Source of the DNA: a phage
Direction: 5' to 3' (one strand)
Sequence record: PZ154896.1
Length of the DNA stretch: 64,000 nucleotides
The notes under the pieces were generated by a model. The model was not told the DNA's origin. It did not search any database and was given only the letters and a program-made list of their open reading frames with translations. The position numbers and the translations under genes are program-made. Position 1 is the first letter of the stretch. Every line of letters begins with the position of its first letter. Of this stretch, positions 49,331 to 49,786 are shown piece by piece.

Positions 49331-49786
49331 TTATTTTAGATCTTCGGCCCAATCTAGTTTTAAGGGTTCTTTGTATTCACGGTCGAGAATAACCGGAATA
49401 GCTACATCACCACTGAATGATAGTTGGCCAACGTTATATGATAACGTTATATGTGGAGTGTAGTCGTCGAAATCATGAGTAGCACCTAAAGCTCGTGCAT
49501 ACTGATGACGACATCTAAGATATTCGGAATCAAGAACTAAAACCAGTACAGCGCCGTCGTCAGTTTTCCATACCTCAAAGTGTCCTGATTCGGCAATAGA
49601 ATAACTACCACTAGACGTAGTATATGGTATGTTTACACGTGAATAACAAATTGTTGAATGAAGCTTTTCACGTGGTACTGGATTAGGAATTCTTAATTTA
49701 CGCTGGAGGTCTTCCAGCGCATCAAGTGTTAATTCCGAAAATTTAGCTGCGACGTAGAGGCCTTGTGAAAAGTCCTCAAATTTCAT
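49331..49786 (-). CDS. 57B: gp57B; 2H-phosphoesterase fold (anti-CBASS Acb1-like)
   Basis: 151 aa; two H-x-T/S motifs (HSTICY, HITLSY); position next to 57A and gene 1 matches T4 57B. Confidence 0.75.

Follow-up and report, generated by a model that had tools for sequence, protein, structure and literature searches.

The acb1 locus

The window analyzed here is a single 64,000-nucleotide stretch of phage DNA (sequence record PZ154896.1). At the locus of interest, genes run along the minus strand in the order 2, 3, 1, 57A, acb1 and internal head protein, followed by small conserved open reading frames (ORFs) and two tRNAs (Table 1). Through the internal protein this is the gene order of T4, and the series 2-3-1-57A-57B-internal protein is common to T4, Mizar and phi25-307. 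At the nucleotide level, positions 48900-50800 share 99.9% identity with Escherichia phage EP02SG and 98.3% with Shigella phage phi25-307, the latter classified in Mosigvirus, Tevenvirinae.

Table 1. Genes, motifs and candidate regulatory element at the acb1 locus (window coordinates)
Feature	Coordinates	Strand	Basis
Gene 2-like	51496-52317	-	Neighborhood gene
Gene 3 tail protein	50809-51399	-	PF06841
Gene 1 (dNMP kinase)	50021..50755	-	Pfam PF21448 DNMK, E=3e-96; upstream neighbor as in T4
TATAAATA (T4 late-promoter consensus), candidate late promoter for 57A-acb1, inside gene 1	50371..50378	-	Pattern match
Gene 57A (tail-fiber assembly chaperone)	49786..50016	-	Pfam PF17594 GP57, E=5.9e-23
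acb1 (gene 57B orthologue), predicted 2H-phosphoesterase-type anti-CBASS nuclease	49331..49786	-	ORF, 151 aa, ATG start, stop codon included; Pfam, T4 and 7T26_A matches
First catalytic motif, H43-S-T45-I (T4 H44/T46)	49649..49660	-	Sequence read; nine-sequence alignment; role from Hobbs 2022
Second catalytic motif, H112-I-T114-L (T4 H113/T115)	49442..49453	-	Sequence read; nine-sequence alignment; role from Hobbs 2022
C-terminal segment E140-K151: E140 (T4 E141), W146 (T4 W147), lid residues (T4 145-152)	49334..49369	-	Residue mapping
Internal head protein, 102 aa	48949-49257	-	phrog_2667, E=3.6e-41

In T4, gene 57B likewise lies directly after gene 1 and 57A. The stop codon of 57A here overlaps the start of acb1 by 1 nt (TAATG; junction sequence GAAGAATAATGAAA), whereas the overlap is 4 nt as annotated in T4. 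From this stop/start overlap, we consider 57A and acb1 to be probably co-transcribed and translationally coupled. The two loci diverge on the downstream side, where the neighbor of acb1 is ipI in T4 but a different internal head protein gene in the window.

The T4 neighbor ipI, which encodes an anti-GmrSD inhibitor, is absent from the acb1 locus here. The internal head protein found in its stead has only an N-terminal segment, MKTFKEF..., in common with T4 IPI; this segment is presumably a capsid-targeting and protease-cleavage leader. Mizar and other relatives have both genes; there, ipI occupies an additional cassette that separates acb1 from the phrog_2667 gene. The tRNA complement also differs from that of T4. 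The whole 64-kb window has two tRNA genes, Arg-tct and Met-cat (47271-47425, minus strand), and phi25-307 has the same reduced pair, whereas the corresponding T4 locus holds eight tRNAs, two small stable RNAs and the segB homing endonuclease.

Candidate promoters and a stem-loop element

One copy of the octamer TATAAATA lies within gene 1, approximately 350 nt upstream of the gene 1 stop codon. Gene 1 of T4 has this octamer at a matching position (L001 5006-5013), approximately 356 nt from its stop. Across the window the octamer is not enriched (9 found versus 7.9 expected), and therefore only the positional conservation with T4 counts in favor of this copy. We regard it as a candidate late promoter that may drive 57A and acb1. 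Such a role would fit the middle/late expression reported for T4 57B and the onset of T4 Acb1 activity at about 15 min of infection. Between positions 48600 and 51600, promoter-like sites in a generic sigma-70 scan were no commoner than in shuffled sequence (9 versus 9.4), and a terminator scan of the same interval detected no convincing terminator directly after acb1.

Elsewhere in the window, two TATAAATA octamers stand back to back at 52781-52788 (plus strand) and 52796-52803 (minus strand), matching the divergent gene 4/gene 53 intergenic region of T4, where the same arrangement is found (L001 7350-7357, plus strand; 7365-7372, minus strand). This pattern fits divergent late promoters that have been conserved.

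Between acb1 and the internal head protein gene, we also observed a promoter-like sequence, TTTACA-N17-TATAGT with an extended TG (49281-49316, minus strand). It is overlapped by a perfect 12-bp stem-loop (GATAGGACTAtg..taTAGTCCTATC; RNA minimum free energy -19 kcal/mol, z = -4.3) that has no U-tract. T4 has the same promoter/stem-loop layout with a different stem (GATGAGGTA...TACCTCATC), and the stem changes are thus compensatory. In Mizar, one promoter/stem-loop cassette precedes each of the two internal-protein genes. The promoter-early stem-loop (PeSL) shuffling cassettes of T4-type phages have the published consensus TTTACW-N17-TAYWAT with AGNA-loop-TCNT (PMC4122927), and the layout of the putative element in the window matches these cassettes.

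The product of acb1 is a T4-type Acb1

The original prediction for this gene was that it is a 57B homologue retaining two H-x-T/S motifs, HSTI and HITL, at T4-like spacing. Both motifs are indeed present, at residues 43-46 and 112-115, and they are the sole HxT/S motifs among the five histidines of the protein (positions 43, 69, 94, 104 and 112). The distance between the motif histidines, 69 residues, is identical to that separating H44 and H113 in T4 Acb1. Taken alone, however, the HxT/S pair is weak evidence for the identity of the gene. In 100,000 composition-preserving shuffles of the protein, at least two HxT/S motifs arose in 14%, a pair spaced 60-80 residues apart in 2.7%, and at least two HxT motifs in 2.3%; at least two HxT/S motifs also occur in 8 of the 86 window ORFs of at least 100 aa. 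Because pairs are this common by chance, we argue the identity of acb1 from homology and not from the motifs. What raises the pair far above chance is that, when the protein is aligned with Acb1 over its full length, both motifs sit on catalytic columns that are invariant.

Homology searches gave a single strong answer. The protein matches the Pfam family Anti-CBASS protein Acb1 (PF23474) with E=1.8e-58 and 196.8 bits, against a gathering cutoff of 27, and the match runs through residues 8-149 and all of the profile (positions 1-144 of 144). Among structures in the Protein Data Bank (PDB), the match is to Acb1 of Erwinia phage FBB1 (7T26, apo; 7T27, with a 3'3'-cGAMP analogue; E=7.9e-59). PHROGs places the protein in phrog_755, labeled 'RNA ligase', and no NCBIfam model matches it at E values up to 1.

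Comparison with T4 Acb1 (57B, NP_049750.1; PMC9117128) bears out the assignment to gene 57B. The two proteins align without gaps at 85% identity (74% for the DNA), and together with the shared neighbors and the full-length Pfam match this identifies the gene as a 57B homologue, as had been proposed. The annotated T4 protein begins one codon earlier, and residue numbers in the window protein are accordingly offset by -1. FBB1 Acb1, from a phage of a different host, shares 64% identity over 140 aligned residues (9-148), and its tetrad and contact residues align without a shift. It differs in having F at the position of W73 and a one-residue insertion after window-protein position 78. By this homology, the product of acb1 would adopt the compact 2H phosphoesterase fold, with FBB1 Acb1 as the structural template for both the fold and the lid mechanism. 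A single-sequence AlphaFold2 prediction gave an unusable model (mean pLDDT 38.8, pTM 0.30), and the fold assignment therefore rests on sequence identity to 7T26.

More distant members of the family place the window protein further. Other Straboviridae 57B orthologues, from phages of Acinetobacter, Aeromonas, Vibrio and Klebsiella, share approximately 37-53% identity and have variable C-terminal regions, with the HxT motifs kept. A divergent Acb1 of 165 aa (9Q2G/9Q2Y) belongs to the same family by profile comparison (E=2.7e-11 for 9Q2G) and also keeps both HxT motifs. By its sequence, the window protein belongs in the T4-proximal core and not among these divergent outliers.

The same profile, built from nine homologues, also matched residues 492-609 of the portal protein of cyanophage Pam3 (PDB 8HDS chain A; E=7.8e-10). 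Both 2H motifs are kept in this C-terminal region, as HVTI and HISL. A tblastn search with the acb1 product likewise matched a gene annotated 'portal protein' in Synechococcus phage Yong-M2-251. These matches suggest that an Acb1-like 2H domain may be fused to a virion portal in these phages; a narrow literature search on Acb1 and portal protein found no mention of such a fusion.

Functional residues are conserved under purifying selection

The residues that matter for Acb1 activity were defined by Hobbs et al. 2022 (PMC9117128). In T4 Acb1, these comprise a catalytic tetrad (H44/T46/H113/T115), four residues that stack on the nucleobases (Y12/W74/F107/W147), E141, which contacts adenine N6, and a C-terminal lid (residues 145-152). 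All nine residues named for catalysis or nucleobase contact are kept in the window protein, at the same spacing: the tetrad H43, T45, H112 and T114, and the contact residues Y11, W73, F106, W146 and E140, each identical to its T4 equivalent. The lid is shared as well, reading LDWAEDLK in the window protein and LDWADDLK in T4, and the same C-terminus is reached. We aligned the window protein with eight homologues, including proteins from phages of Klebsiella, Acinetobacter, Aeromonas, Vibrio and Stenotrophomonas. Across these nine sequences, Y11, H43, T45, H112, T114 and E140 are invariant down to 37% identity.

The differences from T4 Acb1 amount to 23 substitutions, mostly conservative, and none falls on a named functional residue. 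Relative to T4, pN is 0.119 and pS is 0.715, giving a pN/pS of 0.17; dN/dS is approximately 0.06, with dS near saturation. These values indicate that acb1 is under strong purifying selection relative to T4.

Predicted activity and alternative readings

We are highly confident that this ORF encodes a functional Acb1, orthologous to T4 gene 57B, in a T-even phage of the Mosigvirus type. A functional anti-CBASS phosphodiesterase is predicted on the basis of orthology to T4, membership in the Acb1 family, retention of the tetrad and contact residues, and purifying selection. Such an anti-CBASS role is the natural prediction for this gene, and its activity and specificity are well supported by inference from homology.

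Studies of the T4 enzyme and its relatives define what such a protein does. T4 Acb1 cleaves adenosine-containing cyclic di- and trinucleotides (3'3'-cGAMP, cUA as well as cAAA) and does not cleave cGG or cA4, and T4 lacking acb1 is more sensitive to CBASS (PMC9117128). Nine further cloned acb1 homologues each cleaved 3'3'-cGAMP and cAAA (Hobbs 2022; PMC9117128). Transposon insertions in T4 57B are depleted on a CBASS host, and the T4 gene is conditionally required on hosts that carry CBASS.

The mechanism is established for T4 and FBB1 Acb1, and we infer that it applies to the window protein. Expression of acb1 would probably occur together with 57A in middle/late infection. The small 2H-phosphoesterase domain would then bind a CBASS cyclic di- or trinucleotide containing at least one adenosine, such as 3'3'-cGAMP, cUA, cAAA or cAAG. 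The ligand bases would be stacked between Y11, W73, F106 and W146, with E140 reading adenine N6, and the C-terminal lid would shut over the bound ligand. Strain in the ligand would bring the adenosine 2'-OH into position for in-line attack on the 3'-5' bond, above the H43/T45/H112/T114 tetrad. Metal-independent acid-base catalysis is then predicted to break the ring open by way of a 2',3'-cyclic phosphate intermediate, yielding a linear product with a 3'-phosphate. With the signal removed, CBASS effectors would not be activated and abortive infection would be averted.

The original prediction went further than this and described a nuclease acting against both CBASS and Pycsar, which would also hydrolyze cCMP and cUMP. 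Homology, the conserved residues and purifying selection uphold the anti-CBASS half of that claim; the anti-Pycsar half fails, and we give the dual activity next to no probability. All that speaks for it is the broad consideration that cyclic phosphodiesters are substrates of 2H enzymes in general. Against it, each of the two enzymes, Acb1 and Apyc1, is reported to be confined to one system, CBASS or Pycsar signaling, in work that included wild-type Acb1 among the treatments in the cUMP/PycTIR assay (Hobbs 2022; PMC9117128), and the Acb1 pocket fits only cyclic di- and trinucleotides (PMC9117128). The Pycsar signals are instead degraded by Apyc1, a metallo-beta-lactamase (MBL)-fold enzyme with an HxHxDH motif that is unrelated to Acb1 in both structure and mechanism (PMC9117128). 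Apyc1 of phage SBSphiJ follows the same strategy of destroying a cyclic-nucleotide immune signal with a phage-encoded enzyme, but it is a homodimer with a Zn-dependent HxHxDH site that cleaves cyclic mononucleotides, and it has no similarity to the window protein. None of the five histidines of the acb1 product forms the H-x-H pair of the Apyc1 Zn motif. Moreover, a Pfam search at E values up to 10 returned no MBL or other phosphodiesterase family, only Acb1 and a sub-threshold match to the 2'-5' RNA ligase superfamily, and the substrate-contact residues are the same as in T4. By analogy with the T4 enzyme, we expect no activity of the acb1 product on cyclic mononucleotides, cGG or cA4.

The sub-threshold Pfam match touches on a different possibility, namely that the protein is a generic LigT-like RNA 2',3'-cyclic phosphodiesterase or 2'-5' RNA ligase with RNA ends as substrates, as in tRNA repair. 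The 'RNA ligase' label of PHROG 755, which RefSeq also applies to T4 57B and its orthologues, points in this direction, as does the 2H superfamily chemistry held in common. LigT and other 2H phosphoesterases (PF13563) resemble the window protein in their two HxT/S motifs, metal-independent transesterification and 2H fold. They act, in contrast, on RNA ends or, in the case of the animal-virus enzymes, on 2'3'-cGAMP, rather than on bacterial 3'3' cyclic oligonucleotides; the poxvirus cGAMP phosphodiesterases are reported to be structural and functional homologues of Acb1. The PF13563 match itself is partial (residues 69-131) and weak (E=0.012; 16.1 bits versus a cutoff of 27), lying far below threshold when the Acb1 family scores 196.8 bits, and is consistent only with remote kinship within the 2H superfamily. 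It was through its cGAMP-degrading activity that the T4 orthologue was isolated, and deleting it sensitizes T4 to CBASS; the window protein keeps the residues for base stacking and adenine reading that are specific to the binding of cyclic oligonucleotides. We therefore consider an RNA-end enzyme exceedingly unlikely.

Loss of acb1, both natural and selected, has precedents. Phages expressing a functional Acb1 are restricted by Panoptes-type guard systems; mutations that inactivate acb1 are found in Bas35 escapers of type II Panoptes, and a nonsense mutation interrupts the gene in Bas43, a natural phage. That the copy in the window is inactivated or drifting, for example through loss under Panoptes pressure, is nevertheless hardly credible. 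Its reading frame is full length and untruncated, the catalytic and contact residues are all intact, and selection against amino acid change relative to T4 has been strong. The identical protein also recurs in independent isolates, with 100% identical proteins already deposited (e.g., Shigella phage SSE1). By tblastn, a homologue is present in 1,490 of 50,697 phage records, at 99% identity or higher in 119 of them.

The gene could also be functional with altered specificity. With its 23 differences from T4 Acb1, the Mosigvirus-type allele might have a shifted substrate range; for example, it might act on signals that the T4 enzyme spares, or be less active on 2',3'-c-di-AMP or cA3, the Panoptes guard molecules. 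If so, the allele could allow evasion of CBASS without tripping Panoptes. The sequence gives no pointer to such a shift, as every named contact residue is unchanged, and we judge it very unlikely.

Annotation and implications for phage defense

The acb1 gene of the window is an ordinary, intact copy of a known gene at its usual place, and as such was already known; the Mizar gene at the same position is annotated 'anti-CBASS Acb1-like protein'. Labels attached to 57B orthologues elsewhere are uneven. RefSeq records (T4 NC_000866, phi25-307, ATK47 and others) and PHROG 755 use 'RNA ligase', and most GenBank records use 'hypothetical protein'. The 'RNA ligase' label appears not to reflect a tested function but to be an outdated name carried over by homology from the 2'-5' RNA ligase (LigT) superfamily.

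We conclude that the correct label is acb1 (anti-CBASS phosphodiesterase), in place of 'RNA ligase' or 'hypothetical protein', and that the gene does not belong among anti-Pycsar factors. Beyond annotation, the finding has little significance. For the phage itself, an intact acb1 predicts that it should resist CBASS signaling by adenosine-containing cyclic di- and trinucleotides, and the same gene may render it sensitive to Panoptes-type guard systems.
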